Assembly: GCA_041640595.1 (NCBI GenBank)
Contig: JBEPZY010000001.1
Location: 864,001 to 928,000 of the forward strand
Origin: Gemmatales bacterium
GTDB taxonomy: Bacteria; Planctomycetota; Planctomycetia; Gemmatales; HRBIN36
Direction of reading: 5' to 3'
Length of the DNA: 64,000 nt
Below are positions 9,669-25,232 of the stretch, piece after piece. Below the pieces are notes generated by a model. That model worked only from the letters and a program-made list of their open reading frames with translations, made no database searches and was not told the DNA's origin. How positions within the stretch are numbered: position 1 is the first letter of the stretch; the number at the start of each line of letters is the position of its first letter. The position numbers were made by a program, and so were the translations under genes.

Positions 9669-11042
9669 CTAGAGCGTTTTCAGGTACTCGATAATGGCAA
9701 AGCGCTCGGCATCGGTCAGCTGGTCGCCGTAAGTGTGCCCGGTGTTGCTGCGACCGGGCTGGGACGTGTCGTAAACTTTGCGGCGTTCCAGAGCAGGAAC
9801 TTCAGGCCCAGGTGCACGGTCCAGCTCACGAAATTTCCAGCCCAATCGAACCGGATCGTAATCCTCGACATTCGTGCGAAAACTGCGTGTGAAGATTTTT
9901 GGCCGGGCCTTGCTGTTCAAAACGTGGTACACTGTTGGCACCGAACCATTGTGAAAATACGGCGCAGTGGCCCAGACACCATCCAGAGGCGGAGCCTGGT
10001 ATCCAATCTCGTCGCGGAGAATCATGGGTTGACCCGATGCGTCGCGCTCCCGGCCAAACCAGCTACGAACGTAGTGGCGTTTGGCGGCGTCGGGGATGCC
10101 TTTTGCACGCAAGGGATCCGTGCCGATTTCCTCTAAAGGAATCACCCGGTTTGGGTACACGCCTCGCGGCCCATAAGTTCCGTGACAGCGTGCGCAGTGC
10201 TTCTCGAAAAGGGCTTGCCCCTTGGCTGCCAACGCACGATCAATCTCAAAAGGATACCTGGGTGGCTCCAGGCTGAGGATAAAGGCCTGAATATCCGCGA
10301 AGGTGCTTTCGAGTGATTGGATATATTCCGGCCCGTTGAGTGGGTTGAGTACGAACTGCATCAAAGACCGGACGGAGCGCGCGTCGGTGCTGCCGGTGTG
10401 GTACATGGTTTTCTTCTTTTTCAGCAGCCACCAGGCAGGCGCATCTTCGCACATGCTCGGCGTGATGGGAAAATCCTGAGGCGGGACAATCCGCAATTCC
10501 TCATCGCGGAAACGGAGCAGATACACGGCCATGCTGGCTCCTTCTGTAGTGCCACGCACCTGCGTAAACGGAAAGGGTACGATACGCCGAATTCCCTCGG
10601 CCGCGAAGAGTTCCTCGTAAAGGGCCTGCATGTCCAGCGAAGCATTCCCCAGGCCGATGATGCTTTGCCCGAACAGCGAACTGGCATGACACAGCAAACA
10701 ATCGTTGGTAATCCCACGCCCCAGTAACCCGCGAGTGTAGCGCAAGCCCATGGGCAAGCCATCGTTCGGATAAGGAGCGGGATGCAGACCGTATCGTTCG
10801 CGGAACAGCGCCTCGAAATTGGCTGGTTTTTCTTTCAGACCCCAGATTTTCCACACGTTTTGGTAAGCCTGCTCGGACCAGGCAACCGGCAAATAAGCTC
10901 GCTCCAGTAGCGCTGCTCGGCCACGCTGGGGATCACCTCGTCGTTCGTCGCCAGCCAAGACGCTGGCTTCATAAACCAGCCCCCCCGCTACACACACAGC
11001 AGCATTTACGGCAATTATCCATCGTTTACCGACCATCTCCAT
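9669..11042 (-). CDS. Exported di-heme c-type cytochrome, RoxA/MauG-like
   Basis: Two CxxCH motifs (CLLCH, CARCH), [21 protein letters not shown]-terminal N.GH...IIEYLKTL, N-terminal hydrophobic leader. Confidence 0.85.
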
Positions 11043-11201
11043 CGCTGCTTACCCTCTGCCATTGCCCAGAACCGGACTCGTTGCCCACAGCAGTCGTTTA
11101 TTTTACCGACTGCCAGGTACGGGGCGATTCTATGTGCAAATTCGCGGCAGGTTGCAATAATAATCAAAATGACTCAGGAACCGGAAAAGTGCGGTTGCTC
11201 C

Positions 11202-12758
11202 ATGCATGCTCCCGACCTGGCCACTTTCAGTGAACTGGCGCGGCAGTACACGCTGGTACCGGTGTATCGCCAGCTTCTGGGTGATACTCTCACGCCAGTT
11301 ACGGCATTCCAACGGCTTGGAAAAAGCGCCTGGTCGTTCCTGTTTGAAAGCGTAGTGGGTGGCGAGCGCGTGGGGAGGTACAGTTTTGTTGGCGGTGAAC
11401 CATTCCTGCATTTTCAAGCCTGGGACCGCCGCGTTCGCATCGAAACAGCGGGCACCGTCTGCGAACAAGAGCATCCCGACCCCCTGCGTTTGCTGGAAGA
11501 ATACGTACACCGCTACCGGGCACCGCACCTGCCTGGATTGCCCCGCTTCTGTGGCGGTGCGGTAGGATATGCGGCCTACGATGCGGTGCGTTATACGGAA
11601 CGTCTGCCCCATCCGCCTGCTGACGATCGCGGTCTGCCGGATCTTTGCTTCGCCTTCTACGACCGCATGGTCATCTTCGACCACATTAACAAAACCCTGG
11701 CCGTGGTGGCATTAGCTCATGTGGACCGCCAGCGACTCCAGGAGTGTTACCGTGACGCCTGCCGGCGAGTGGACGAATTAGTGGAGCAACTGCGCAGGCG
11801 CACCGAGGAGCCACCCCTGGCAGACATTCAGCTGAACGACGTTGCACACGCAGGTGTCGCGGTGGGGGCGAACCTTACGCCGCTGGCAATCCTGGAAAAA
11901 TCGGGGCGGCGTATCGAGTCCAATTTCACACGCGACCAATTCTGCGCTGCCGTTCGTCGCTGCCAGGAGTACATCCGTGCCGGCGATGTGTTTCAGGTGG
12001 TGATCAGCCAACGCTTGCAAACTCAGACGCAGGCAGATCCATTCGACCTGTATCGCATCCTGCGGGTGGTCAACCCCAGTCCGTTTATGTTCTATCTGCG
12101 ATGCGGTGAACTGACGCTCGTAGGAAGCAGCCCCGAGATCATGGTGCGCGTGGAGGGGGACAAAATTACCATTCGCCCCCTGGCTGGTACACGCCGACGT
12201 GGTCGCACGGAAGAAGAGGATAAACGCCTGGCCGAAGAATTACTCGCCGATCCCAAAGAGCGAGCTGAGCACATCATGCTCGTGGATTTGGGCCGCAACG
12301 ATGTGGGACGCGTAGCCATTCCCGGCACGGTGGAATTGAGTGACTTGATGGTGGTAGAGCGTTACAGCCATGTGATGCATATCACCTCGAACGTGAGCGG
12401 GCGATTGCAGCCGGGCAAAACTGCCTTCGATGCGTTGCGAGCGTGCTTGCCTGCCGGAACGGTCAGCGGTGCCCCGAAAGTGCGTGCGATGGAGATCATT
12501 GACGAACTCGAGCCGCATCGTCGCGGACCCTACGCCGGAGCAGTCGGTTACATAGATTTCAGCGGTAATATGGACACGTGCATTGCCCTGCGCACCATGG
12601 TCATCCTCGGTCAAACCGTATATATCCAGGCTGGGGCTGGCATTGTGTATGACAGCGTCCCCGAGCGTGAGTATGAGGAGACACTCAATAAGGCTCTGGC
12701 ATTGCTCCGCACCATTGAGCTGGCTGAGCGGCAGTTGTCGCGGCAGCAAGTGAGGTAG
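11202..12758 (+). CDS. trpE: Anthranilate synthase component I
   Basis: [61 protein letters not shown]. Start could be 11169. Confidence 0.95.
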
Positions 12759-12763
12759 CCTTT

Positions 12764-14188
12764 ATGCAGTCGGGCACAGTTTGGTGGTGGTCGGGGCTGG
12801 TGTGTACGCTGCTGGTGCGCCTCGCGTGGCTGGCAACGTTACAAATACCGCAACCTCTGGACAAGCTCGGCCATTCTCTGTTCCACCAGACTCTATCCGC
12901 TTCCGCTGATGGCCAGCCAACCACTGACGAAACCCTGCCAACCAATAGTGCCCCAGGCGAACAGCAGCTAGCCTCACTGCCGTTGGGGAGCCGCTATGTG
13001 ATTTATCCGGTGGTGCGGAACATTTGTGCCAGCGGCAAGGAACTGGGAGTGCCGTGGTACTGGGTGCTGGGCGGACTCCAGGCGTTATTCCAAAGCGCTG
13101 CGATCGGGGGATTGGCCGTGGTAACCTGGCGAGTTTTTGGCAATCGGCTTCTCGTCACGCTGACGGTGCTGGTCGCGGCCATGTATCCGCCTGGTTTATT
13201 GCATCTGGTTTCGCTGAGCGACCTGCCGCTGACGAGCTGCCTGGTAACCAACTGGCTGGCCCTGACGCTGATCAGTGCTGCAACAGGCGGGGTGTTGGCC
13301 TCTGCACTGGTCGGACTCCTTGGAGGGTGCCTGATGGTCATGCGGCCGGGTTGGGGTCTAGCGGTCGTGCTGGTTACTGTTTGGCACCTGTGGCAGCTGC
13401 GACGAGTCCGGTACGGCTGGCTGGCCAGTCTGGTGGTCGTACTTGCGCTGGCCAATGTTTGCGGCACGTGGTTTGTCCGGCACTGGCTGCAAACCGGCGA
13501 ACCAGTCCCGTTCGCTACCGGCCTCTGGCAATCCGTCGCCGATGGCTTTCCGCACAACCTGAGAAGCAGCGAGGACAAAACAGTCCAGGACTGGCGTGAA
13601 CTGGCGCACCGGACGCTACGCATCTGGCGACAGCATCCCCGTTCGTGGCTGCAATACCGGCTCATGGTGTGGGGCGCTGTTCTGGTCGGAGAGCCTGCCT
13701 ACGATTTTGGCTGGCCAGCCACAGGGTCTTCCGCGGTTGCTCCCGACCCTCGCCTTGTTCAAAGCAGTGAGCAAACGCCCGAACTGTTCCCGCACCGAAT
13801 ACCGACGCCCCGCCCGTCCGAGGTGCCGATTAGCGAAATCCCGATCCCAGCGTGGATACGACCGGCTTTCGTGAGCGGTCTATTGCCCGCCACGCGCTGG
13901 CTGTTCTGGCTGGGCGTCCTTTTGGGGTGGCGGTGGTCCTTTGCACATCCCGAGAGACAGTGGCCGCTGAGTGCCATTCTGGGCTCGGTGTTGCTTGTTT
14001 ATGGCCTTGGCCCGTTTGCATCGCTTCACTGGGGCCTGGCTGCGGTCGAACCGATATTGCTGCTCTACGCTCTCGTCGCATTCACCGCTTTCATTCCAGG
14101 GGCCTGGCCCAAGACCGTTGCCAGCAGTTCGTCCGACATGGATAACGGTGATGAATCGCCGACAGGCTCGCCCGCAGAGCAAAGTTAG
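12764..14188 (+). CDS. Polytopic membrane protein, possibly GT-C (ArnT/PMT-like) fold
   Basis: About 10 hydrophobic segments; starts 5 nt after the trpE stop. The family call is weak. Confidence 0.55.
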   Translation: MQSGTVWWWSGLVCTLLVRLAWLATLQIPQPLDKLGHSLFHQTLSASADGQPTTDETLPTNSAPGEQQLASLPLGSRYVIYPVVRNICASGKELGVPWYWVLGGLQALFQSAAIGGLAVVTWRVFGNRLLVTLTVLVAAMYPPGLLHLVSLSDLPLTSCLVTNWLALTLISAATGGVLASALVGLLGGCLMVMRPGWGLAVVLVTVWHLWQLRRVRYGWLASLVVVLALANVCGTWFVRHWLQTGEPVPFATGLWQSVADGFPHNLRSSEDKTVQDWRELAHRTLRIWRQHPRSWLQYRLMVWGAVLVGEPAYDFGWPATGSSAVAPDPRLVQSSEQTPELFPHRIPTPRPSEVPISEIPIPAWIRPAFVSGLLPATRWLFWLGVLLGWRWSFAHPERQWPLSAILGSVLLVYGLGPFASLHWGLAAVEPILLLYALVAFTAFIPGAWPKTVASSSSDMDNGDESPTGSPAEQS

Positions 14189-14350
14189 CGTGGTCGCACT
14201 GTTCAAAAATCGATACACGATAACGGGTGGCTACCGTTGCGTAAATCGCGGAAAGCCTCACGCCTACGGGCTCAACCATTTCCATGTTTGTGCAAAAACC
14301 AACGGCATTCACGAGCACACGCCCAATTCCTTGCGAGACTACCGAAACGC

Positions 14351-15256
14351 TCAGGGTTCCTGGCCGGGCATTACGAAGTAGAAGTCGCTGTCACCATCAC
14401 TGAGTCGGCGTAGCTGCATGGTACGAAGAATTTTTGCCATCTCCCGCACGTAGTATGCCTGTACGGCCCGTTGTGGATCGCTGGATTCGGCCAGGCTAAG
14501 CCACAACGCACGGTGTCGGTAAGCCTGTGAGCGTGCCTGGGCAATCTTCTCCCGCTGCTGATTCTGAGCCTGAGTGATGACCAGATTGGCCTCCTGCAAG
14601 GCCCGCGAACGAGCTAACTCCGCTTCCATGTGAGTCGTTTCCTGCAACCGTGCCGCCTGCGACATCGCTACTGTCGTGGCCTGGAAATCCTCAGCGACTT
14701 CTTCCGGTGGTTGTGGCGTGGCCAGCGTTACTGCCTCGATCACCACGCCCAGGCGATAGGATTTTAGATACTGCGAAACGCGCTGATGAATTTCCGGTTC
14801 CAGATGGCGGGCACGGTTAAGCAGAATTTCCTGGATCGGTTGCCGGGCAAACACATGGGCAAGTGCTGCTTCTCCGGCCCGGCTAATCAGAGGCACCAGG
14901 CGATCCTGATGCAACACATAATCGGGAACACGGTCCGGGTCGGGGCGGAAGAATATCGTAGCCTGGACGTTAACCAGATTATCGTCTCCGGTAAGTAACT
15001 GGCCGGGTGGAGCCACTTCCAGCACACGCTCCTCTCCAGCTTCAAAGCCGACACGGATTTGCTGTTGTTGCAGCGGTACGAAAGTAACCCGATCGAATCC
15101 CCAGGGTAAACCAAAATGCAAGCCGGGGCCGCAAACCCGGTACACTTTCCCGAACCGCTGAACCAGCGCCAGCTCGCCAGCGTTCACCTGGAAAATTCCC
15201 GTGGCCAGATACGCTAGCCCTGCCAGTGTTATGCATCCCAGTGCCAGACGCTGCAT
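14351..15256 (-). CDS. HflK-like SPFH (band 7) protein
   Basis: N-terminal TM, VQRFG...GPGLHFGLPW, LLTGDDNLV, PPEEV..DF, then a coiled-coil. Confidence 0.85.
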   Translation of the reverse strand: MQRLALGCITLAGLAYLATGIFQVNAGELALVQRFGKVYRVCGPGLHFGLPWGFDRVTFVPLQQQQIRVGFEAGEERVLEVAPPGQLLTGDDNLVNVQATIFFRPDPDRVPDYVLHQDRLVPLISRAGEAALAHVFARQPIQEILLNRARHLEPEIHQRVSQYLKSYRLGVVIEAVTLATPQPPEEVAEDFQATTVAMSQAARLQETTHMEAELARSRALQEANLVITQAQNQQREKIAQARSQAYRHRALWLSLAESSDPQRAVQAYYVREMAKILRTMQLRRLSDGDSDFYFVMPGQEP

Positions 15257-15335
15257 GTTTCCCAGCTCCTTGTTGCCAAGGCGTTTTTATTGCTCGCCAG
15301 TTGCGGTTGAGCAGTAGCCCGCTGTGCCATTGTGG

Positions 15336-16445
15336 CTAGCGATTTGGGCTGCTGTTGTTCGGCTTGACCACCGACCGGTGTTCTTTATCGCTGGCCAGGT
15401 TCGGCAAGTCACGTAGCCACTTCAACAACGGGTGATCCAGCGACAGAATCATCTGCGTGCGACCATCGCCGAGCCATTCGCGGTAAAAGTCGAGGTACAG
15501 GAGCAACTCGTAGGCTAGCGGTGCTTCACGATAAACAGCGTTGAGAATACGGTTGGCTTCGCTCTGGGCCTCGCTTTCCAGAGCGCGCTTCCGGGTCTCG
15601 GCCTCGGTGCGAATCTTGCTGACCTCCTTGAGACTGGCGGCGCGAATTTCCTGAGCCTTTTCCTCACCCTGATTGCGAAAGCGCTGAGCCAGGCGTCGCT
15701 GCTGTTCGGCAATCTGCTCAAAAATCTGCTTCCGCACTTGCACCGGGTGATTGAAACGCCGTAGCTGCGCGTCCACGATTTCGATCCCATGCTGCAATGC
15801 CCGTTGCCTCAGGCTAAGCTTTTCCGGATCACCCGGCTCGCGTTCGTAAGGCCTGTCGAGCAAGTTACGCAGCATTTCTGCGACGGTACGCTGACGGGGG
15901 TCGGTGTTGACAAGGTCGCTATAGCTCAATTCGGCCATTTCCACCTTAAGCCGGCTGATTAGCTGATTGCGAAGCCAGGCCTGGGCCCGGTCGAGTGTTC
16001 CGAAACTGCGGAGAAATGCGTTGACGGGATCGCGCCGGTAACTTTCCACGGCATCGGTATCCCGCGAGGCGATTCGCCATACCAGGTACACATCGAAGGT
16101 CAGCCGTAACGGCGTTTCCCGCTGGACCTCGGGAACACGGTCATCAGCCGAGACGAACTGTGTATCACCGGGGCTGGACATGCCGGTGTGGCCACCGGTA
16201 CGAATGAGCAATTCTTGCGTGGGAATATCGAGCACCTGAATGCGGCGATCCATGCGCAGGATGCTCTCAATCGGCCAGGGCCATTTCCAGTGCAGTCCGG
16301 CTTCTACCTCGCCGTCGAACGTCGCGCGGTGCTCGCCGAAGCGGGTAACATACACCACCTCTCCCAGGTCCACAAAAATAATCGCACTGTAAACACACCA
16401 GGCAGCCACGCCCAGAATGAGCAATCCCCACAAGAAGCGACGCAT
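15336..16445 (-). CDS. HflC-like SPFH (band 7) protein
   Basis: N-terminal TM, VTRFG...AGLHWKWPWPI, D.Y.VWRI, GIEIVD..LRRFN.P, R.QGEE.A..IRA; AGGAG RBS before ATG 16445. Confidence 0.85.
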   Translation of the reverse strand: MRRFLWGLLILGVAAWCVYSAIIFVDLGEVVYVTRFGEHRATFDGEVEAGLHWKWPWPIESILRMDRRIQVLDIPTQELLIRTGGHTGMSSPGDTQFVSADDRVPEVQRETPLRLTFDVYLVWRIASRDTDAVESYRRDPVNAFLRSFGTLDRAQAWLRNQLISRLKVEMAELSYSDLVNTDPRQRTVAEMLRNLLDRPYEREPGDPEKLSLRQRALQHGIEIVDAQLRRFNHPVQVRKQIFEQIAEQQRRLAQRFRNQGEEKAQEIRAASLKEVSKIRTEAETRKRALESEAQSEANRILNAVYREAPLAYELLLYLDFYREWLGDGRTQMILSLDHPLLKWLRDLPNLASDKEHRSVVKPNNSSPNR

Positions 16446-16589
16446 CGCTAGCACTCCTGGCTAATCGGACAAATAGTTGTCAGATTCGAGCCGAGGCACG
16501 ATTGTCCCGTGCCTTTATCACTCCGCCTCGCAGCGACAGCGAAGAAAAATGTTCCGCCGACGGAAAACGAGGCGGTTGCATTCGTGGCA

Positions 16590-19500
16590 TCATTTTTCCT
16601 CTTGAATAGGCCGACGCGGTGGGAAAGTTTCGCCCGGCACGACAATGCGTGGCCGAAAAGCATCTGGCAACACATGCAGACGTCCCTTGAGTTGCGGATC
16701 ACGAATCAGGCGCGGTTTGCCAGCCAGTGCCTGACCCACCAGTTCGAGTGTCCACCGCAGCCGCGTCAAGGCCCAATCAGTCTCAGCGTGATTGTGATTA
16801 TGGTTGCTGGCCCAATGGAGATTGACAGCCAAATTGAGTGGCTGCGTGCCATCTGCAACAGGCCAGGTCGGCCAATTCAATTGATGCACGCTGGGCCGAC
16901 GTAGCGAATTCTCCAGCTCCCGAATGGCCTGAGCTTCAGCTCTGGCACGAGCAACGGTCTGGAAATGATCGGCTTCCGCCTGGGCTACGATTTTGCTCGC
17001 CTCCACCCGGGCCGAAGAAATGGCTGCTGCCGCTTCGCGGTTGGCCTCGATGATGCGGCGGTTGCGTTCCAACAGTGCCCGCGTGACGTCGTAATAGGCA
17101 TCCACAATTTCCGGCGGCGGATGCAAATCCTGCACCGCCACGGTTTCCAGCGTTATCCCCAGCTGCAGGTGGCTGATACGGGAATGCAATCGCTGGAATG
17201 CTTCCTGCTGCAACTTTTCCCGTGCGGTCAACAACAGGCTCAGAAAATCGCTACCAGCCACCACTTCTCGCAAGGCAGTCTCGGCCTCGGCACGGAGCAC
17301 GGCTTCCGGGTCTGCCACCGCGAAATAATACTGGTGCGGCTCGGATATGCGATACTGAACCACGGCCTGAAGCTCGACCAGAACGCGATCCCCCGTGATC
17401 ATCAACCCTTCTTCCCGATCGGAACCCGGACCATCTCCGTGCGGACTGCTCCAGGTCATTGGCGCTGTGCCGCCTATGGCCATGCGCATGCCTATCGGGA
17501 CAATGCGGACACGCTGAGGCTGCACGCGCAAAATTCGTTCCCATGGCCAGGGCCAGCGTAGATGCAGGCCCGGTGATAAAGGCGTTTCCAACACCCGACC
17601 GCAGCGGTTGACCAGGCCAATTTCATCCGGGCCGATCACCACTAGGCACGTGCTCCAGTAAAGTACCACCAAAGCTATCAGGCCGGAGATAGCCAGAGCG
17701 CGGCGGTGATGCTCCGCCCAATGCATGGCTTCGTGCCAGCTGAGTCGTTCCAGCCAGCGATCCATCGCCTGAGAAGTTTCCCGCAGCCATTGCCACCATC
17801 GCCAGTGTTGGACTCGTTCAAACCACAACAGCCGCATGGCGTTGAGCAATACCGCAACCGAGCCAATCTGGTGATAAATAGCAGCCCAGAGAGGCGCTCG
17901 ATGCCGGGCCGTCTCTGACCAGGCTGGCATGAGCCACGCGGTCAGGACAATCCCTACAGCGTTTACTCCAAACGCAAACCACAGGATGTTCTGCCGGATG
18001 ATCCGCTCCGTCTGTCGGGCCAGGCGGACCAGCAAGGGCAGAGGCTTGAGCGGATCGCCCATCAGCACAATATCGCCCACTTCCGCGGCAACGTCGGAAC
18101 CAATGCTCCCCAGCGCGATTCCAACGTCGGCACGAGCCAGTGCTGGTGCATCGTTGATCCCGTCACCGACCATGGCGACACGCCAGCCGCGCTGTCTCCA
18201 GCTATCGAGCCATTCGGCTTTCTGGGCCGGTAACAGCTCTGCCACCACTTCCGTGATACCAACCTGCTCAGCCACTCGCACGGCGGCTGCTTGCCTGTCA
18301 CCTGTGAGCAAGGCGATCGGCTCCAGCCCAAGCTCTCGCAATTGCCGGACTACCACCGGAGCTTCGGCACGTATCACGTCGCTGGCTCCCAGCACACCAA
18401 CCACGCGCCCATCCACCGCACAGACCAGAACTGTCCCACCTTCCTGGTCGAGAACCGCAATAGCTTGTTCGACTTCCGGCCCGAACGAAATCCCCTGGGC
18501 AAGCAGAAAACGCTGATTTCCGACGAGCACGACCCTGCCCGCAATGCGAGCGCTGACACCGGCTCCCGGATGAGCCTGGAAGTCTTCGACCGATGGTAAT
18601 TCCAGTTGCCGCTGACGAGCTGCCGCCACTATCGCCTGGGCAAGCGGATGCTCGCTACGCTGTTCCGCGGCAGCTGCCCATAAAAGCACGTCGTCGGCGC
18701 TCATGTCGGCAACCAGTGGAATAACTCGCTGCAATTGCAGACGCCCCTGCGTCAACGTGCCGGTCTTGTCAAAAGCAATCGCCTGCACCTGAGCCAGGCG
18801 TTCCAGGGCCGCCCCACCTTTGACCAGAACACCAGTTCCGGCCAGGCGACCCAGGGCCGCGATGATCGCCGCTGGTGTTGCCAGAATCAACGCGCATGGA
18901 CAAGCGACTACCAGCACCGAAAGCGCTGGATACACCGCTTCGTATGCTCCTACGCGACCTCCGCCGTACCACCACCAGCCTGCCAGAAACGTAAGCAGCG
19001 ACAGCGTCAGAACCACGGGGAGAAAATAGCGAGCCAGTCGGTCTGCCGTGCGTTCCAGCGGTGCTTTTTCCCGCAGCGCCTGGGCAGTCAGTTCCAGCAC
19101 CCGCGCCAGTACGGTATGTTCCGCCGCACGACGCACCTCGACTACCAGGGCGCCATGTTGATTCAGAGTGCCGGCGAAGACCTCGTCCCCCGGCCCTTTA
19201 TCCACGGGAACGCTCTCGCCCGTAAGCGTGCTTTGATCCACCGCCGAGCGACCTTCGACGACGATGCCGTCCACGGGGACACGTTTGCCTGGCCGTACCA
19301 GCACCCGCTCGCCTACCCGCACATCTTCGACCCGCACACGTTCTTCCCGGCCATCCCGCAACACCAGGCACATGGTGGGACAAATTTCAGCTAACCGTTG
19401 CAGGGCGTATTGCGTTCGCTGGAACGTGATAGCCTCCAGGCATTCGCCCACCAGTCCGATGAACACCACTTCTGCCGCAACCAGAGGTTGATTAATCAGA

Positions 19501-19829
19501 ATTGCCGCTACTACCGCCAAAGCCAGAGCCAGATCAGCACCGAACCGCCCCGCCATTAAACTTTCCAACGCACTGTAAAGAATTCTTGCCCCACCGAAAA
19601 CGGCTGCCACCAGTGCCCAATCGAAATGGCGACCGAGGATGGTTAAGCCGCTCGGCAAGCGTGGTAACGCAATATTCCACCAGCTGCTCAACCATCCAGC
19701 CAATTCCGGCCAGATCGCCAGCGCTAATAGCGCCCCAATCAGCGCCGTGAACAGGTAGAGTCCGGCGTGGCTTTCACGCCGAAACATGCTGTCCAGGTAG
19801 GAAATCTCCCGGTGCATCGCTGCGGTCAC
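16590..19829 (-). CDS. P1B-type (heavy-metal) P-type ATPase fused to a C-terminal HflK-like SPFH domain
   Basis: TGES, CPC, DKTGT, SEHP, TGD and GDGINDAP motifs, followed by an extra TM, PGLHLRWPWPW, MITGD..LV, QDLHPPPEIVDAY and a coiled-coil; one 1079-aa frame. Confidence 0.92.
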   Translation of the reverse strand: MTAAMHREISYLDSMFRRESHAGLYLFTALIGALLALAIWPELAGWLSSWWNIALPRLPSGLTILGRHFDWALVAAVFGGARILYSALESLMAGRFGADLALALAVVAAILINQPLVAAEVVFIGLVGECLEAITFQRTQYALQRLAEICPTMCLVLRDGREERVRVEDVRVGERVLVRPGKRVPVDGIVVEGRSAVDQSTLTGESVPVDKGPGDEVFAGTLNQHGALVVEVRRAAEHTVLARVLELTAQALREKAPLERTADRLARYFLPVVLTLSLLTFLAGWWWYGGGRVGAYEAVYPALSVLVVACPCALILATPAAIIAALGRLAGTGVLVKGGAALERLAQVQAIAFDKTGTLTQGRLQLQRVIPLVADMSADDVLLWAAAAEQRSEHPLAQAIVAAARQRQLELPSVEDFQAHPGAGVSARIAGRVVLVGNQRFLLAQGISFGPEVEQAIAVLDQEGGTVLVCAVDGRVVGVLGASDVIRAEAPVVVRQLRELGLEPIALLTGDRQAAAVRVAEQVGITEVVAELLPAQKAEWLDSWRQRGWRVAMVGDGINDAPALARADVGIALGSIGSDVAAEVGDIVLMGDPLKPLPLLVRLARQTERIIRQNILWFAFGVNAVGIVLTAWLMPAWSETARHRAPLWAAIYHQIGSVAVLLNAMRLLWFERVQHWRWWQWLRETSQAMDRWLERLSWHEAMHWAEHHRRALAISGLIALVVLYWSTCLVVIGPDEIGLVNRCGRVLETPLSPGLHLRWPWPWERILRVQPQRVRIVPIGMRMAIGGTAPMTWSSPHGDGPGSDREEGLMITGDRVLVELQAVVQYRISEPHQYYFAVADPEAVLRAEAETALREVVAGSDFLSLLLTAREKLQQEAFQRLHSRISHLQLGITLETVAVQDLHPPPEIVDAYYDVTRALLERNRRIIEANREAAAAISSARVEASKIVAQAEADHFQTVARARAEAQAIRELENSLRRPSVHQLNWPTWPVADGTQPLNLAVNLHWASNHNHNHAETDWALTRLRWTLELVGQALAGKPRLIRDPQLKGRLHVLPDAFRPRIVVPGETFPPRRPIQEEK

Positions 19830-20088
19830 CTCCTCCAGTGATATTTCATTTTAGTTTGACCATTCTTTGTTTGCCGCTCCGGCAGCCCGGAATACATGTG
19901 CAAAGCGGCCAACCCTGGCGGTTTATCCCCGCCCCACGATCGATCCTGGTGTTGTCCTTACGAGAAACCGCGCCACATAGGGGTACTGAGGAAAACTTTT
20001 TTGGCTGGCGTTCGTCTTACCAATGGGTCAAGCAGAATATCCACGGCGAGGTGGATTCGAAGCCTTTTCAACAAAGGGAGGTACACAC

Positions 20089-22278
20089 ATGCGAGTACGG
20101 GGTAAACTCCTGCTTTTAGGCGTCCTGGCCAGTGCCGGGCTGGGAACTTTTGGTGCCTGGCTATGGCACGGACATCGGGAACAAGCCCATGCTCAACAGG
20201 CTGCAACGGCTACACCAGCGGTTCAGCTGAAAGAACCTGCGGTTCCTTTGCCGCTCACGCGCGTAACTTTGTTCAGTGCCGGTGTCGGTCACTTTATACG
20301 TGAAGGTGAAGTCGAAGGCACGGTTCGCGCGGACTTCAATTTCCGCCCCGAACACATCAACGACGTGCTGAAAAGTCTCGTCGCCAACGATCTCGGCGGC
20401 GGAACCGTCTCCACGGTCACCTACGACAGTCAGGACCCGGTCGAAAAGACCCTGCGTAGCTTCGCCATCAACCTCCACGGCAATCCGAGCCTGGCACAAA
20501 TTCTCATCCAGGCCCGTGGCGAACGCGTCGAAGTAGTCTTGCAACAGACGGCCATTACCCAGCCGGGAACCCTTACCGGCTCCATTCTCGGTGTGGAAAA
20601 ACAGAAACAACCCGCTGGCAACACTAGCATAGATGTAGATGTCCTGAACCTGTGGTGTGCGGAGGGCGTGCGTTCGATTAAGTTGGCCGACATTCAGCGC
20701 ATCCGTTTCCTGAATCCCAACATTGAATCGGAGTTTCGCCGGGCCCTCGAGACTCTCGCCTATGCTCACGACACGCAAAAGAAGACCGTGTCCGTCATCT
20801 TCAGTGGCGAGGGAAAACGGCCGGTGCGCGTGAGTTATCTCCAGGAAAATCCCATCTGGAAGATGAGTTATCGGCTTGTGCTCCATAAGGAAGGCAAACC
20901 GTATTTGCAGGGCTGGGCGATTGTCGAAAATCAAACCGATGAAGATTGGCAAGGCGTGCGCGTGGGTCTGGTGAGCGGTCGGCCCATCTCGTTCATCATG
21001 GATTTGTACCAGCCCCTTTATGTGCCCCGCCCGGTTGTGGACCTGGAGCTATTGGCGAACCTGCGGCCGGTAACTTATACTGGGGCAATGCAATTGATGG
21101 AACAGGGGGGCCTTGGAGCAGCGTTGCCACCGGGAGCTCCGCAGGGGGGCTTGCAGTCAGCCAATCGCGAAAAACAAGCAGGTCACGCCGCCGTAGCCGA
21201 TGCGGCCAAACGTGACCGAGGCGAAGCGAACGAACTCGAACTCCGGCGAGCTGCTGCCGCGCGACAGTTCGGCCAGAACCTGGCTCGCGGCATCGAATCG
21301 GTGGCTTCCGCTCAAGACCTGGGCGATTTCTTCGAGTATAGCATCGAACATCCTGTCACGCTCCCGCGGCAAAAGTCGGCTTTGCTGCCGGTCATCACTC
21401 AGCGAGTCGAAGGCCGACGGGTTAGCATCTACAACGAACGCCATCTGGCTAAACATCCCCTCCTGGGCTTCTATTTGAAGAACACCACCGGTTTGCATCT
21501 ACTTCAAGGCCCGATCACGGTGTTTGATGATTCGACTTACGCCGGTGAGGCCAAGATCGGCGACATTCAACGCGGCGAGGAACGCTTGCTCAGCTACGCC
21601 GTTGATTTAGGCACGGAAGTCGAGCCTCAGGCTAAACGTCAACCGGATCGGCTGGTGGCCGTGCGTGTGCAGCGCGGTGTCCTATATGCCACGAACAAAG
21701 TACGCGAAGAAAAGACCTATGTCATTCGCAATCGTTCCGAACAGGATCGCGTAGTCCTGATAGAACATCCCTATCGCGGTCCCGATTTCAAACTCATCGC
21801 CCCGGAGAAACCGCTCGAGCGTGCTCGCGATGTTTATCGCTTTGAAGTAACGGTGCCTAAAGGCGAAACCAAGAAGCTGGAAGTCATCGAGGAACGCGAT
21901 GTTGTGAGCACGGTGGCACTAAGCAACGCGGACGACCAGACTATCCGCATTTTCCTGCAAAGCCCGATCACCAGCCAGAAAGTCAAGGATGCCCTGAGTG
22001 AAATCGTGCAAAGGAAGCACCGTCTGGCCCAGTTGCAGCAGGAACTGACGCAAACACAGGCCGAGCTAAAGATACTGGTGGACGATCAGGCACGCCTGCG
22101 AGCCAACATGCAGGCTCTGCCGCCTAGCAGCGAAACTTACAAACGCTACCTGAAAAAACTCGATGAGCAGGAACCCTTGATTGATAAGTATCAGGAACGT
22201 ATCAAGGCCCTGCAACAGGATATCTTGAAACAGCGGCAGGCCCTGGACAATTACCTGGTCAATCTCAATCTCGATTAG
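20089..22278 (+). CDS. Exported DUF4139-like protein with C-terminal coiled-coil
   Basis: GGAGG RBS before ATG 20089, signal peptide, VTLFSAGVGHF, INDVLKSL, LQGWAIVEN.TDEDW. Confidence 0.75.
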   Translation: MRVRGKLLLLGVLASAGLGTFGAWLWHGHREQAHAQQAATATPAVQLKEPAVPLPLTRVTLFSAGVGHFIREGEVEGTVRADFNFRPEHINDVLKSLVANDLGGGTVSTVTYDSQDPVEKTLRSFAINLHGNPSLAQILIQARGERVEVVLQQTAITQPGTLTGSILGVEKQKQPAGNTSIDVDVLNLWCAEGVRSIKLADIQRIRFLNPNIESEFRRALETLAYAHDTQKKTVSVIFSGEGKRPVRVSYLQENPIWKMSYRLVLHKEGKPYLQGWAIVENQTDEDWQGVRVGLVSGRPISFIMDLYQPLYVPRPVVDLELLANLRPVTYTGAMQLMEQGGLGAALPPGAPQGGLQSANREKQAGHAAVADAAKRDRGEANELELRRAAAARQFGQNLARGIESVASAQDLGDFFEYSIEHPVTLPRQKSALLPVITQRVEGRRVSIYNERHLAKHPLLGFYLKNTTGLHLLQGPITVFDDSTYAGEAKIGDIQRGEERLLSYAVDLGTEVEPQAKRQPDRLVAVRVQRGVLYATNKVREEKTYVIRNRSEQDRVVLIEHPYRGPDFKLIAPEKPLERARDVYRFEVTVPKGETKKLEVIEERDVVSTVALSNADDQTIRIFLQSPITSQKVKDALSEIVQRKHRLAQLQQELTQTQAELKILVDDQARLRANMQALPPSSETYKRYLKKLDEQEPLIDKYQERIKALQQDILKQRQALDNYLVNLNLD

Positions 22279-22339
22279 GCTCCCACTTGCCAGCTAAATC
22301 CAAAGAAGCGGGAGCGTTCCAAGGTATGCCTTTGGTCAC

Positions 22340-22369
22340 GCGGGCGGGTATCCCCCGCCCGCATTCTTT
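22340..22369 (+). terminator. Probable intrinsic terminator after the DUF4139-like gene
   Basis: GCGGGCGGG-TATCC-CCCGCCCGC 9-bp stem followed by ATTCTTT. Confidence 0.55.
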
Positions 22370-22905
22370 GCGCGAACGTGCTAATTCGCTCCTACCGGCA
22401 GAGTTTGCCCAACCGGAATCTACACCGTTGGGGACTAAGGTCGCCCGTTTGCAACAATCAGCCTGAATCACAAAGGGCAAGCAGGAAACGCCAATAACCT
22501 CATGCTCCGAATCCAGTGCATTGCGGTTGCCAGGTGGAGCGAGGTAATCCACTAATGTGAGCGACTGAACCACGGACAAAAAGGTCGCAAACCATGTCGA
22601 GCCGAGGCGATCCACGGCTAATTTGGCGTGCCATCGGCAAACGAATCGAATATGCGTTCGCATGAAAACGGAGGTGAACGATAGCTTATCTGGTAGGCCA
22701 ACCTGGCGGTTCTTCGTCGGCGAATGGCAAGGTTTTTCTGGCAGCGGTCTTCTTCGCTCGTTCATTTCAATCATTCCATTACGGTTACCACGACAGTCTC
22801 GCGGTACACACTTGACGCAACCTCTCGATTCACTGACCCGCGGCTGGCGATACTATAAATCAAAGATTGCCACCGAGCGCCCCTTGCGGTCAACGGGGAG
22901 TGAAT

Positions 22906-23868
22906 GTGAATTTGCGGATTCGACCATTCCGTAACACCGATCCGCCCGCGCTGGTGCGGCTGTGGAATGTGGCCCTGACTGGTCGCGGGGCTGCTATTCT
23001 CCCCAACGTCAATTGTCTGGAATTGGCGGTGCTCGCACGACCTTACTTCGAATCCAAAGGTTTGCTCCTTGCCGAATGTGACGGTCAGATCGTCGGGTTT
23101 GTTCATGCTGGTTTTGGTCCGGACTCCACAGGTCAGCGAATCAGTTACGAGCGTGGCGTGATTTGTGTGCTCGCGGTTCATCCGGAATGGCGACGCCAAG
23201 GAGTTGGAACGCAGCTGCTTCGTCAGGCTGAGACATACCTTCGCCAGCATGAAGCGCGAGAGATTTATTTCGGCTGCCACAGACCCTTGTGCCCGTTTTA
23301 CTGGGGACTTTACGGCGGTAGTGAACCTTCAGGAGTCCTGGAATCCGATGCCCTTGCCAAACCTTTTCTTCAGCGGCATGGTTATGCGGTGCAGGCCACA
23401 CACATCGTGTACCAAAGAATCCTCGACGGCACCCCCTGGAGAATAAGCCCGCAAGCTGCTGTCTGGAAAGCGAAATGTGAACTTGAAGTCATCCCACGTC
23501 CGGTTCACACAAACTGGTTCGAGGCCTGCGTTACCTCGCCGCTGGAAATGTTTCGTCTTCAGGCCCTACTGGAAGGTCGCACCGTTGCTCAGGTGGACAT
23601 GTGGGAAATGGAACTGTTCGGCTGGCGATGGAAGCAACCTTCGGTTGGGCTATTGGATTTGCAAGTTGCCGCAGAGTTCAAAGGCCAGGGGCTCGAATTC
23701 TTCTTGCTGGCTTCCAGCTTACAATGGTTAGAGGAACAATACTACACCCTGGTCGAAATGCATGTACCTGAATCCGACCAGGAATTGCGGAAAAACCTCC
23801 GCGATTTGGGATTCGAAATGGTAGATCGCGGCCTGGTCTATCGGCTGGACCGACCGGGCGCCAGCTAA
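22906..23868 (+). CDS. GNAT family N-acetyltransferase (tandem GNAT-like)
   Basis: LAVHPEWRRQGVGTQLL acetyl-CoA motif A, plus a degenerate second copy (LQVAAEFKGQGLE); GGGGAG RBS. Confidence 0.85.
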   Translation: MNLRIRPFRNTDPPALVRLWNVALTGRGAAILPNVNCLELAVLARPYFESKGLLLAECDGQIVGFVHAGFGPDSTGQRISYERGVICVLAVHPEWRRQGVGTQLLRQAETYLRQHEAREIYFGCHRPLCPFYWGLYGGSEPSGVLESDALAKPFLQRHGYAVQATHIVYQRILDGTPWRISPQAAVWKAKCELEVIPRPVHTNWFEACVTSPLEMFRLQALLEGRTVAQVDMWEMELFGWRWKQPSVGLLDLQVAAEFKGQGLEFFLLASSLQWLEEQYYTLVEMHVPESDQELRKNLRDLGFEMVDRGLVYRLDRPGAS

Positions 23869-23969
23869 AAACAGCAAGAGCGCACGCCCCAGCGTGACCG
23901 GTCGGCACGGCCAGATGCCAGACGCGAAAGCCAGCCGGTTTTCTCAAAGCCATCGGCGATGAGGTAACA

Positions 23970-25232
23970 ATGCCAGAAAAAAAAGGACACCATCCAGGCG
24001 AATTTTGCACTGTCGAGGAAGCTCTCGAGGAGCTTCGCTCGGGAAAGATGATTGTGCTGGTGGACGATGAATTTCGAGAAAACGAGGGCGACCTTGTTCT
24101 GGCCGCCGAGAAGGTTACGCCCGAAGCGATCAATTTCATGCTGCGTGAAGCCCGAGGCCTGCTCTGTCTGGCCATGTCCGCGGAAATCTGCGACCGGCTG
24201 GAGCTTGGCCTGCAGGTCCCGCTGAGTAACCCGATGGGGACTGCCTTCACCGTTTCTTTCGACGCCCGCCGGGGCATCACCACTGGCACTTCCGCCTACG
24301 ACCGTGCCCACACCATCCGCGTGGCCATTGACCCCCGTGCCCAGCCAGGCGACCTGGTACGTCCCGGGCATGTCCACGGTCTCCGGGCTCATCCTGGCGG
24401 TGTCCTGGTGCGAGCCGGACATACCGAGGGCAGCGTGGATTTATGCCGGCTAGCCGGTTTACGAGAAGCGGCCGTCATTTGCGAAATCCTCCGCCCCGAT
24501 GGCCACATGGCCCGGCTCCCTGAACTCCGCGAATTCTGTCGGCAGCACGATCTGAAAATGTGCACCATCGAGGAAATCATCAAATACCGTCGGCAACGTG
24601 AAAAACTGGTCCGACGCGAACTCGCTTTGACCCTGCCGACCGAATTCGGCGAATTCCGGCTCTTCGCTTACACGTCGGTAGTGGATCCCGAACCGCATCT
24701 GGCCCTCTGCCTGGGAGGAATTGGCGACGATAGCGGCGGTGTTGTTCCCGTGCAGGAAGAACCGGTGCTGGTGCGGATTCACTCCCAGTGCCTGACCGGC
24801 GATATTTTCCGCAGCCGTCTTTGTGATTGCGGTGCTCAGCTGCACCAGGCCCTAAGGCAAATTGCTGAGGCTGGCAAAGGGTGCCTGCTATACATGCGCC
24901 AGGAAGGCCGCGGGATTGGACTGCTCCCCAAGTTGCACGCCTATCGGTTGCAGCAAGAAAAACACCTGGACACCGTCGAAGCCAACCGCGAACTTGGTTA
25001 CGCGGCCGATCTGCGGCATTACGGCATCGGCGCACAGATTTTGTACGACCTCGGTATTCGGCAGATTCGCTTGCTAACCAATAATCCGAAAAAAGTCGTC
25101 GGGCTGGACGGTTACGGCCTCAAGATCGTAGAGCGAGTTCCCATCCTGGTGCCGCCTACCGAACAAAATCGCGGATACCTTCAGGCTAAGAAAACTAAGC
25201 TCGGCCATCTGCTCGACGAAATCCTCCGCTGA
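23970..25232 (+). CDS. ribBA: Bifunctional DHBP synthase / GTP cyclohydrolase II
   Basis: DDEFRENEGDL, RAGHTEG, RIHSQCLTGD..CDCG, QEGRGIGL, LLTNNP.K. Confidence 0.96.
   Translation: MPEKKGHHPGEFCTVEEALEELRSGKMIVLVDDEFRENEGDLVLAAEKVTPEAINFMLREARGLLCLAMSAEICDRLELGLQVPLSNPMGTAFTVSFDARRGITTGTSAYDRAHTIRVAIDPRAQPGDLVRPGHVHGLRAHPGGVLVRAGHTEGSVDLCRLAGLREAAVICEILRPDGHMARLPELREFCRQHDLKMCTIEEIIKYRRQREKLVRRELALTLPTEFGEFRLFAYTSVVDPEPHLALCLGGIGDDSGGVVPVQEEPVLVRIHSQCLTGDIFRSRLCDCGAQLHQALRQIAEAGKGCLLYMRQEGRGIGLLPKLHAYRLQQEKHLDTVEANRELGYAADLRHYGIGAQILYDLGIRQIRLLTNNPKKVVGLDGYGLKIVERVPILVPPTEQNRGYLQAKKTKLGHLLDEILR

Follow-up and report, generated by a model that had tools for sequence, protein, structure and literature searches.

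In Escherichia coli, 24 alternating HflK and HflC subunits assemble into a complex that extends into the periplasm and whose transmembrane (TM) helices surround FtsH hexamers held by the SPFH domain of HflK; the complex occurs both closed, as a cage, and open, as a nautilus-like shell (PMC12048511). The HflK/C complex modulates the proteolytic activity of FtsH both up and down (PMC12048511). Which roles bacterial SPFH cages have beyond FtsH is an open question, and their clients are hard to identify, binding being weak and conditional. We analyzed a stretch of 64,000 nt from the Gemmatales bacterium assembly GCA_041640595.1 (contig JBEPZY010000001.1, positions 864,001 to 928,000 of the forward strand; hereafter the window), which carries three consecutive SPFH genes, the first of which encodes a heavy-metal pump and an HflK-like SPFH domain in a single polypeptide. 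By analogy to the E. coli complex, we lean with modest confidence towards the interpretation that the three gene products assemble into a single SPFH complex of the HflK/HflC type, to which the metal pump is tethered as a client. In this locus the covalent bond itself would name the client, a metal exporter on a K-type subunit, so that the effect of the scaffold on its client becomes simply testable, and the fusion offers a ready sample for structural work, in which client attachment is fixed.

The nearest published case is the cluster PA2439-PA2435 of Pseudomonas aeruginosa, in which, according to the published annotation, three genes of the HflK/HflC family accompany a P1B ATPase gene. In a znuA mutant, expression of PA2439 (HflK family), PA2438 (HflC), PA2437 (HflC family) and PA2435 (HmtA) was increased 9.0-, 10.6-, 14.4- and 5.6-fold, respectively (PMC4542158, Table 2), and a weak Zur site with an E-value of 0.11 is listed for PA2434 (PMC4542158). 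Proteins of the cluster were also raised in zinc-depleted samples (PMC11761036), and the SPFH trio of the cluster was named PaFlo5-7 and predicted to form one operon; the word HmtA is absent from the accessible text of that report (PMC13086221). In the window, an SPFH trio and a P1B ATPase likewise belong to one putative transcription unit, the pump being part of the first SPFH gene, whereas the P. aeruginosa pump is unfused and the cluster is induced by zinc starvation; the two loci were compared by published annotation. Three planctomycete loci (L047, L050 and L052) show the unfused layout of trio plus P1B ATPase by sequence. Another described combination of an SPFH oligomer with a membrane transport protein, in this case eukaryotic, is, judging from the title of the structure entry, the stomatin cage with aquaporin 1 (9zd2), an entry that was among the fold matches of the fusion, but there the association is non-covalent, the SPFH part is a homo-oligomer and no metals are involved. 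Literature searches, which partly covered titles and the beginnings of abstracts, returned no description of an SPFH domain fused to a P-type ATPase or to a CDF transporter. As far as these searches show, the SPFH::metal-pump architecture is undescribed and represents a variant of the SPFH scaffold-client theme with a covalently attached client. The first-pass annotation of the window, made from the sequence alone, had stated that no characterised system of this kind was known. This holds for the fused form, for which no case was found, but not for the unfused combination, as the zinc-starvation-induced SPFH trio with HmtA has been published, albeit without a mechanism. For this unexplained zinc-regulated trio beside HmtA, the fusion suggests a reading.

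The three genes lie on the minus strand and together span positions 14351-19829:

16590..19829, minus strand: P1B-ATPase::SPFH fusion gene (K1), 1079 aa when read from GTG 19829
16455..16589, no strand: spacer of 135 nt between K1 and C, bridged by an RNA-library contig
15336..16454, minus strand: HflC-like SPFH protein (C; P0002), 372 aa, single N-terminal TM helix
14351..15256, minus strand: HflK-like SPFH protein without cargo (K2; P0003), 301 aa, single N-terminal TM helix

The open reading frames (ORFs) were confirmed as three co-oriented genes, as the first-pass annotation had proposed, and its ATPase::HflK-like fusion proved to be one frame of 1079 aa (ORF 16590-19829) that contains all Pfam domains: E1-E2_ATPase at residues 151-330 (5e-57), Hydrolase at 349-568 (1e-32) and Band_7 at 731-933 (3.4e-23). 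The likely start of the fusion is ATG 19817, which yields 1075 aa beginning with MHREIS, as in homologues of 1075 aa, and has GGAGGAGG upstream. The N-terminus (window 19791-19817) follows the pattern MHRE(I/Y)(S/T)xxD, which is conserved in most fusions. With 587 bits on TIGR01525 (cut-off 346.25), the fusion is a member of the heavy-metal P-type ATPase family, and all three proteins belong to the SPFH/Band_7 superfamily (PF01145) according to their domain scores (83, 58.4 and 90.9 bits at a gathering threshold of 23.6) and, for the fusion, the SPFH fold. Among the NCBIfam models, the C-terminal third of the fusion and P0003 best matched hflK, while P0002 best matched hflC. In the whole assembly, which comprises 4.45 Mb and is 95% complete, Band_7 matches were restricted to these three genes.

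The first-pass annotation had staked its idea on the fusion being present in relatives and supported by reads; relatives with the fusion and contigs bridging its junction were found. The stretch 16400-18400 occurs in 20 public sequencing runs from 16 studies, labelled as hot-spring or microbial-mat metagenomes, and contigs across the junction were examined in four of these runs. An RNA-library contig of 2155 nt spans positions 15709-17864 and thereby connects C through the spacer to the SPFH part of K1 and on across the junction into helix M6; a DNA contig of 1053 nt from another sample covers 17350-18402 without gaps. Contigs from RNA libraries give no information on transcript level, strand or a single transcript, and may result from DNA carry-over. 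An origin of the fusion by frameshift or other artefact was rejected on the basis of the bridging contigs and because the fused architecture is conserved. A search with the C-terminal 400 aa yielded 27 clusters (624-1134 aa), all 27 of which contain Hydrolase and Band_7 domains and 25 of which additionally contain E1-E2_ATPase. All three domains were present in each of the 32 representatives of at least 987 aa, among the 97 scanned of the best 150 at 50% identity, and the best 120 of 7372 matches to a profile of 16 fusions were without exception fused proteins. The survey for the combined E1-E2 ATPase and Band_7 architecture that the first-pass annotation had suggested revealed conservation across the order: a K1 domain (E <= 1e-25) was detected in 179 of 201 sampled genomes and in 136 of the 142 high-quality ones, nearly always within an open frame of about 1050-1200 aa. 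About nine in ten genomes within the order thus retain the fusion, which is repeated with two other exporter families (see below). Among the best 80 loci from named Gemmatales records (Bacterium HR36, Gemmata algarum, Gemmata sp. IIL30 and metagenome-assembled genomes of Frigoriglobus, Fimbriiglobus, Limnoglobus and Urbifossiella), 74 encode ATPase and SPFH domain in frame, three are cut by contig ends and three are broken or split over two frames. In loci L119, L126 and L145, pump and SPFH part lie in different frames or are interrupted by a stop codon; these copies may be decayed, unfused or mis-assembled. Contigs with at least 90% identity to the operon (window 14200-20000) were found in several hot-spring and mat studies and carry many synonymous-looking differences, indicating that close relatives are widespread at such sites.

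Conservation of the triad had been proposed as a test in the first-pass annotation, and the order K1-C-K2 indeed recurs in 15 of 20 loci sampled across the genera of the order, in 35 of the 57 named loci for which 2.6 kb or more of downstream sequence was available and, across the wider phylum, in 16 of 20 loci, the last being a biased sample picked for long frames or paired matches. In a tree of 120 SPFH domains, all middle genes (C) formed one clade with a support of 100, and all 54 cargo-bearing (K1) domains formed one set with a support of 84, apart from the K2 groups. Within the tree, K1, C and K2 show parallel sub-clades by cargo type and lineage. IQ-TREE analysis of 69 rows again recovered C as one clade (100). 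Its free search split K1 (three changes), but the tree in which K1 was kept together had a likelihood that was 19.8 units higher and was not rejected (p-value of the approximately unbiased test, p-AU, 0.77). These phylogenies point to K1, C and K2 being three distinct paralogue groups, of which C is well and the separation of K1 from K2 moderately supported. A search of plasmids with P0002 returned canonical HflC at 22-25% identity and nothing else (19 records).

The fusions without adjacent partner genes, 22 of 57 and five of 20 in the samples of named and order-wide loci, are an argument for an SPFH part that acts in cis only, as a tail for self-association or membrane targeting of the pump, perhaps with formation of K1 homo-oligomers, while C and K2 would function independently. 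The lone fusion in locus L045 and the two tandem fusions without a C gene in each of the loci L054 and L056 fit the same explanation, some SPFH proteins are known to form homo-oligomeric rings, and stomatin entries are among the fold matches of the fusion. However, the order K1-C-K2 recurs with four kinds of cargo, and the parallel sub-clades of the three groups are what is expected under joint inheritance. In addition, an HflC-like gene was present elsewhere in five of five lone-fusion genomes that were checked, which contain 6-12 SPFH genes each, and the genome analyzed here retains exactly the three SPFH genes of the trio. A purely cis-acting tail appears highly improbable to us, and we prefer the interpretation as one assembly of K1, C and K2.

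The following features were assigned within the fusion, residue numbers referring to the protein:

17829..19817, minus strand: P1B-type ATPase module, residues about 5-667, with eight TM helices, A, P and N domains, TIGR01525
18894..18902, minus strand: CPC motif in helix M4 (C310-P311-C312), invariant in 16 of 16 aligned fusions
18756..18770, minus strand: DKTGT phosphorylation motif (D354-T358), invariant in 16 of 16 aligned fusions
17859..17873, minus strand: M6 motif H653-Q654-I-G-S657, with H, Q and S invariant in 16 of 16 fusions
17694..17828, minus strand: cytoplasmic linker, residues 668-712, two W/R/H-rich helices, contains SWHEAMHWAEHH
17634..17690, minus strand: ninth TM helix, residues 714-732, hydropathy 2.36, helix 709-726 in the model
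17031..17639, minus strand: SPFH/Band_7 domain, residues 731-933, HflK-like, Pfam 3.4e-23
17439..17453, minus strand: K1-specific loop motif W793-x-x-x-H797, corresponding to invariant W114 and H118 in alignment A4, low model confidence
16593..17030, minus strand: extended coiled-coil helix at about 906-976, then additional helices and a disordered tail that includes the His-rich insert NHNHNH

With the DKTGT phosphorylation site and the CPx motif in M4, the pump carries two characteristics of P1B ATPases, whereas its metal site does not conform to either of the two subgroups to which it is closest. P1B-1 pumps (CopA) are characterized by YN in M5 and MxxSS in M6. The fusion has FGVN and YHQIGS at these positions, in contrast to FYN and MAFSS in the CopA paralogue of the same genome (L005), which is its other P1B pump and is canonical, with HMA domain, YN and MxxSS. 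No HMA domain was found in the fusion with Pfam; in the distant homologues P0025, P0026 and P0030, a His-rich stretch occupies the N-terminus in place of an HMA domain. The nearest solved chains for the pump are Legionella CopA (3rfu), sCoaT (7qbz) and ZntA (4umv), and the whole-length score was slightly higher against CopA (380.7 bits) than against sCoaT (363.9 bits). For the M5-M6 stretch, the P1B-4 pump sCoaT was the best match in the PDB (9.4e-17), and H653-Q654 aligns opposite H657-E658 of its HEGxT motif. Further residues that are invariant in 16 of 16 fusions are F618-A-F-x-x-N623, P646 and A649. In P1B-4 pumps, SPC and HEGxT form the binding site, in which H657 is crucial (PMC8880997). 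The fusion thus shares with sCoaT the M5-M6 match, the His position of HEGxT and the lack of an HMA domain, but has CPC in M4 where P1B-4 pumps have SPC and Q in M6 where they have E, so that HQIGS retains just the His and the Gly/Ser pattern of the P1B-4 signature. Judged from these motifs, the metal site is a hybrid of CPC in M4 and an HEGxT-like M6, matching neither the P1B-1 nor the P1B-4 signature, and marks an undescribed P1B subtype (CPC + HQxGS).

Because of this metal site, with CPC and an HQxGS that resembles HEGxT, and because all named cargoes of K1 are exporters, the pump is likely an exporter of divalent transition metals of the Zn/Co/Cd type. Neither a CDF (PF01545) nor a ZIP (PF02535) gene was found in the genome, which at a completeness of 95% is not proof of their absence; all 14 control genomes contain a CDF gene. 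Since no CDF gene was found, the fused pump appears to be the main divalent-metal exporter of the organism. One unfused ArsP_1 permease is encoded at C1:798719-799765. Even when long proteins were excluded, the nearest relatives of the pump were mostly fusions or fragments, with few Band_7-less forms and no functional names; some Band_7-less proteins of 700-830 aa from the pump subfamily occur on long contigs.

In the structural model of the full-length fusion (mean predicted local distance difference test score, pLDDT, 71.6), the MA, MB and M1-M6 helices of a P1B pump were present with a kink at CPC, followed by linker helices (677-707), a hydrophobic helix (709-726), the SPFH part, a helix of 71 residues (906-976), short helices and a disordered tail. 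A Foldseek search with a model of residues 680-1079 (pLDDT 73.1) returned HflK chains first (7vhq_E, 4e-18, and 9cz2_XA), then stomatin, erlin and prohibitin chains, with matches at a probability of 1.00. Both termini of P1B pumps are cytoplasmic. As both ends of the pump would thus lie in the cytoplasm and a ninth helix follows, the SPFH part should face the periplasm, in the same orientation as HflK. The first-pass annotation had described the SPFH part as HflK-like and proposed a periplasmic cage; an HflK-like SPFH part that faces the periplasm is supported by the succession of eight ATPase helices and a ninth helix and by the HflK chains being the best matches of the model.

In the linker of the fusion, SWHEAMHWAEHH comprises His pairs spaced i, i+4 in an HExxH-like manner, and the pattern H(E/D)xxH is kept in the closer Gemmatales fusions, but not in fusions labelled as Isosphaeraceae or Acidobacteria. 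From this pattern, the linker may be regarded as a candidate for a cytoplasmic metal-sensing site. Among the K1 domains shown in the alignment, the W-x-x-x-H motif of the loop is present in nine of nine with ATPase cargo, five of five with CDF cargo and three of three with unknown cargo, and it is absent from four of five K1 domains with permease cargo and from six of six K2 domains. Near the C-terminus (window 16590-16740, residues about 1030-1079, and also about 985-1010), NHNHNH is part of a Gemmatales-specific insert with low model confidence. The HflK counterpart of this C-terminal region with the His-rich insert is the top of the dome.

Compared to the E. coli HflK/HflC-FtsH complex (7vhp, 7vhq, 7wi3, 9cz1 and 9cz2), the trio shares single-pass K- and C-type subunits that have long coiled coils and whose SPFH domains would likewise face the periplasm. 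Among solved structures, C and K2 are closest to E. coli HflC and HflK, and sequence and fold comparisons gave the E. coli proteins as the best matches of P0002, P0003 and the C-terminal part of the fusion. In E. coli, the K-type subunit retains a membrane protein, FtsH, as client. The locus in the window differs by encoding three paralogues instead of two, by carrying a metal transporter covalently on the K-type subunit instead of a non-covalently bound protease, by its lack of linkage to hflX or ftsH and by scores below the equivalog cut-offs. Transferring the E. coli architecture, we infer that C would alternate with K-type subunits in a periplasm-facing ring and that K1 subunits would anchor the pumps at the transmembrane palisade of the ring via the cytoplasmic linker. 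K2 would fill further K-positions without cargo, so that fewer than 12 bulky pumps would need to be accommodated, which is a rough geometric argument. The pump would export a divalent transition metal of the Zn/Co/Cd type out of the cytoplasm, and the scaffold would fix this exporter in a delimited membrane patch under the periplasmic dome. The dome in turn may govern the surroundings or stability of the exporter or the fate of the exported ion, be it by providing a defined lipid patch, by protection from or delivery to FtsH, or by handling of the exported ion.

The second of these options leads to a reading in which the trio is the organism's equivalent of HflK/C, operating with its single FtsH. 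The fusion would then place the pump in the FtsH chamber, where its turnover is regulated or the pump is protected, and the purpose would be proteolytic control of exporters rather than metal handling. The genome contains just three SPFH genes and one FtsH, so that FtsH would be left without any other partner of the HflK/C type. FtsH is known to degrade the P-type ATPase MgtA in Salmonella. The retention of FtsH by the HflK SPFH domain and the modulation of its proteolysis in E. coli (PMC12048511), as well as the similarity of C and K2 to HflC and HflK, their nearest relatives of solved structure, are also in line with such coupling. On the other side, none of the three proteins reached the equivalog cut-offs: on the HflK model TIGR01933 (cut-off 159.4), the fusion scored 137.9 and P0003 105.7 bits, and on the HflC model TIGR01932 (cut-off 134.4), P0002 scored 84.1 bits. 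The trio is not linked to ftsH or hflX, which the first-pass annotation had correctly reported as missing from the window: the only Peptidase_M41 (FtsH) match of the genome is located on contig C9 and the only HflX-type match on C3, while the window is part of C1. Relatives with many more SPFH genes still retain the trio, and the recruitment of three exporter families to K1 points to a role that is specific for metal export. We regard FtsH-coupled control as rather unlikely and retain the scaffolded metal exporter as the preferred interpretation.

The link between this SPFH clade and metal export turned out to be stronger than the first-pass annotation had claimed, since two other types of exporters are fused to K1 as well. 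Among 65 representatives of 508-845 aa, 27 were truncated ATPase fusions, 21 combined Cation_efflux (CDF) with Band_7, two combined ArsP_1 with Band_7 and 15 contained Band_7 alone. In the 20 loci fetched from the wider phylum, the cargo of K1 was a P1B ATPase in six, an ArsP_1 permease in eight, a CDF transporter in three and, in the remaining three, a module of about 290 aa that was not recognised. The ArsP_1 cargo passes the model NF033936, 'SO_0444 family Cu/Zn efflux transporter', with 388 and 389 bits at a cut-off of 300, and a CDF cargo passes TIGR01297. Both CDF and SO_0444-type permease fusions are found on the same K1 paralogue and with the same partner genes.

A more far-reaching idea is that the K1-C-K2 ring serves as a periplasmic compartment for metal handling, a 'metalation chamber', in which three unrelated exporter families discharge under the SPFH dome, while the K1-specific W-x-x-x-H loop and His-rich inserts take over the ion and either hand it on to apo-proteins that are periplasmic or exported, or keep it from re-entering. 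We consider this unlikely; if true, it would constitute a function of an SPFH cage that is unrelated to proteolysis. A related alternative assumes metal supply instead of detoxification, with the pump importing metal, as reported for HmtA, or feeding periplasmic or exported metalloproteins under the dome. The induction of PA2435 and PA2437-PA2439 by 5.6- to 14.4-fold in the znuA mutant together with the weak Zur site (PMC4542158) and the increase of the cluster proteins in zinc-depleted samples (PMC11761036) argue in this direction, as do the ZIP importer genes that immediately precede the permease::SPFH trios of L048 and L049 and the conserved W-x-x-x-H loop in K1 that is missing from K2. Yet the likeness to HmtA is based on published annotation and not on sequence, and the unfused pumps beside the trios in L047, L050 and L052 differ from the fused type in M4 (GCPG or SCPC) and in M6. 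All named cargo families are efflux families, no Zur-like site or metal gene was seen near the operon in the window, and no ZIP gene was found in the genome. A function in metal supply is thus, in our view, quite unlikely, and export by a scaffolded pump remains the interpretation that we favor.

Several observations weigh against this interpretation. The metal signature lies outside every described P1B subgroup, and substrate and transport direction are inferred from sequence motifs. The pair of C and K2 is not adjacent to the fusion in five of 20 and 22 of 57 loci, K1 as a single group has moderate support with three changes needed in the free quick tree, and K1, C and K2 all stay below the HflK/HflC equivalog cut-offs. 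In P. aeruginosa, deletion of the SPFH trio caused only subtle phenotypes in the assays described in the accessible text (PMC13086221), and HmtA, the one studied pump of a comparable cluster, was described as a Cu/Zn importer (PMC8456098). The neighbours of the trio in the window are unrelated to metals, no shared motif was detected among seven aligned upstream regions, and none of five flanking proteins (TrpE, the 474-aa ORF, the DUF4139 protein and two 169-aa ORFs) was matched at 1e-8 in any of 100 related loci, some of them from the same genus. The lack of conserved flanks in these 100 loci also suggests that the trio moves as a self-contained unit.

The flanking regions (9669-14188 and 20023-25232) encode a RoxA-like cytochrome c protein, TrpE, an ORF of 474 aa without family assignment, a DUF4139 protein of 751 aa and RibBA. 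The K1-C spacer contains a weak hairpin with a T-run at 16552-16565 on the minus strand, eight terminator-like sites having been found where 5.3 were expected; sigma-70-like promoters numbered zero at an expectation of 2.1. Assignment of the trio to a defence system was rejected, as PADLOC gave zero matches for the three proteins.

Some of the loci from other planctomycetes deviate in their composition. In L047, L050 and L052, the first gene of the trio begins with the unrecognised module of about 290 aa, and K2 is directly followed by an unfused P1B ATPase. The M4 motif of these ATPases is GCPG in L047 and L052 and SCPC in L050, and their M6 is unlike that of the fused type. A distant ArsP_1-like gene lies upstream in L047 and L052, and L047 additionally has a MoxR-type AAA gene upstream. 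Locus L045 contains a lone fusion. In L054 (4267-8130) and L056 (3706-7540), a CDF::SPFH fusion is followed by a protein that comprises about 610 aa and combines an SPFH domain with an N-terminal part that was not recognised, and no HflC-like gene lies between the two fusions. The permease::SPFH trios of L048 and L049 have ZIP zinc-importer genes directly upstream and genes for STT3/AglB-like oligosaccharyltransferases downstream, the intervals concerned being L048 7867-8808, L049 2940-4100, L048 1655-3838 and L049 7858-10404.

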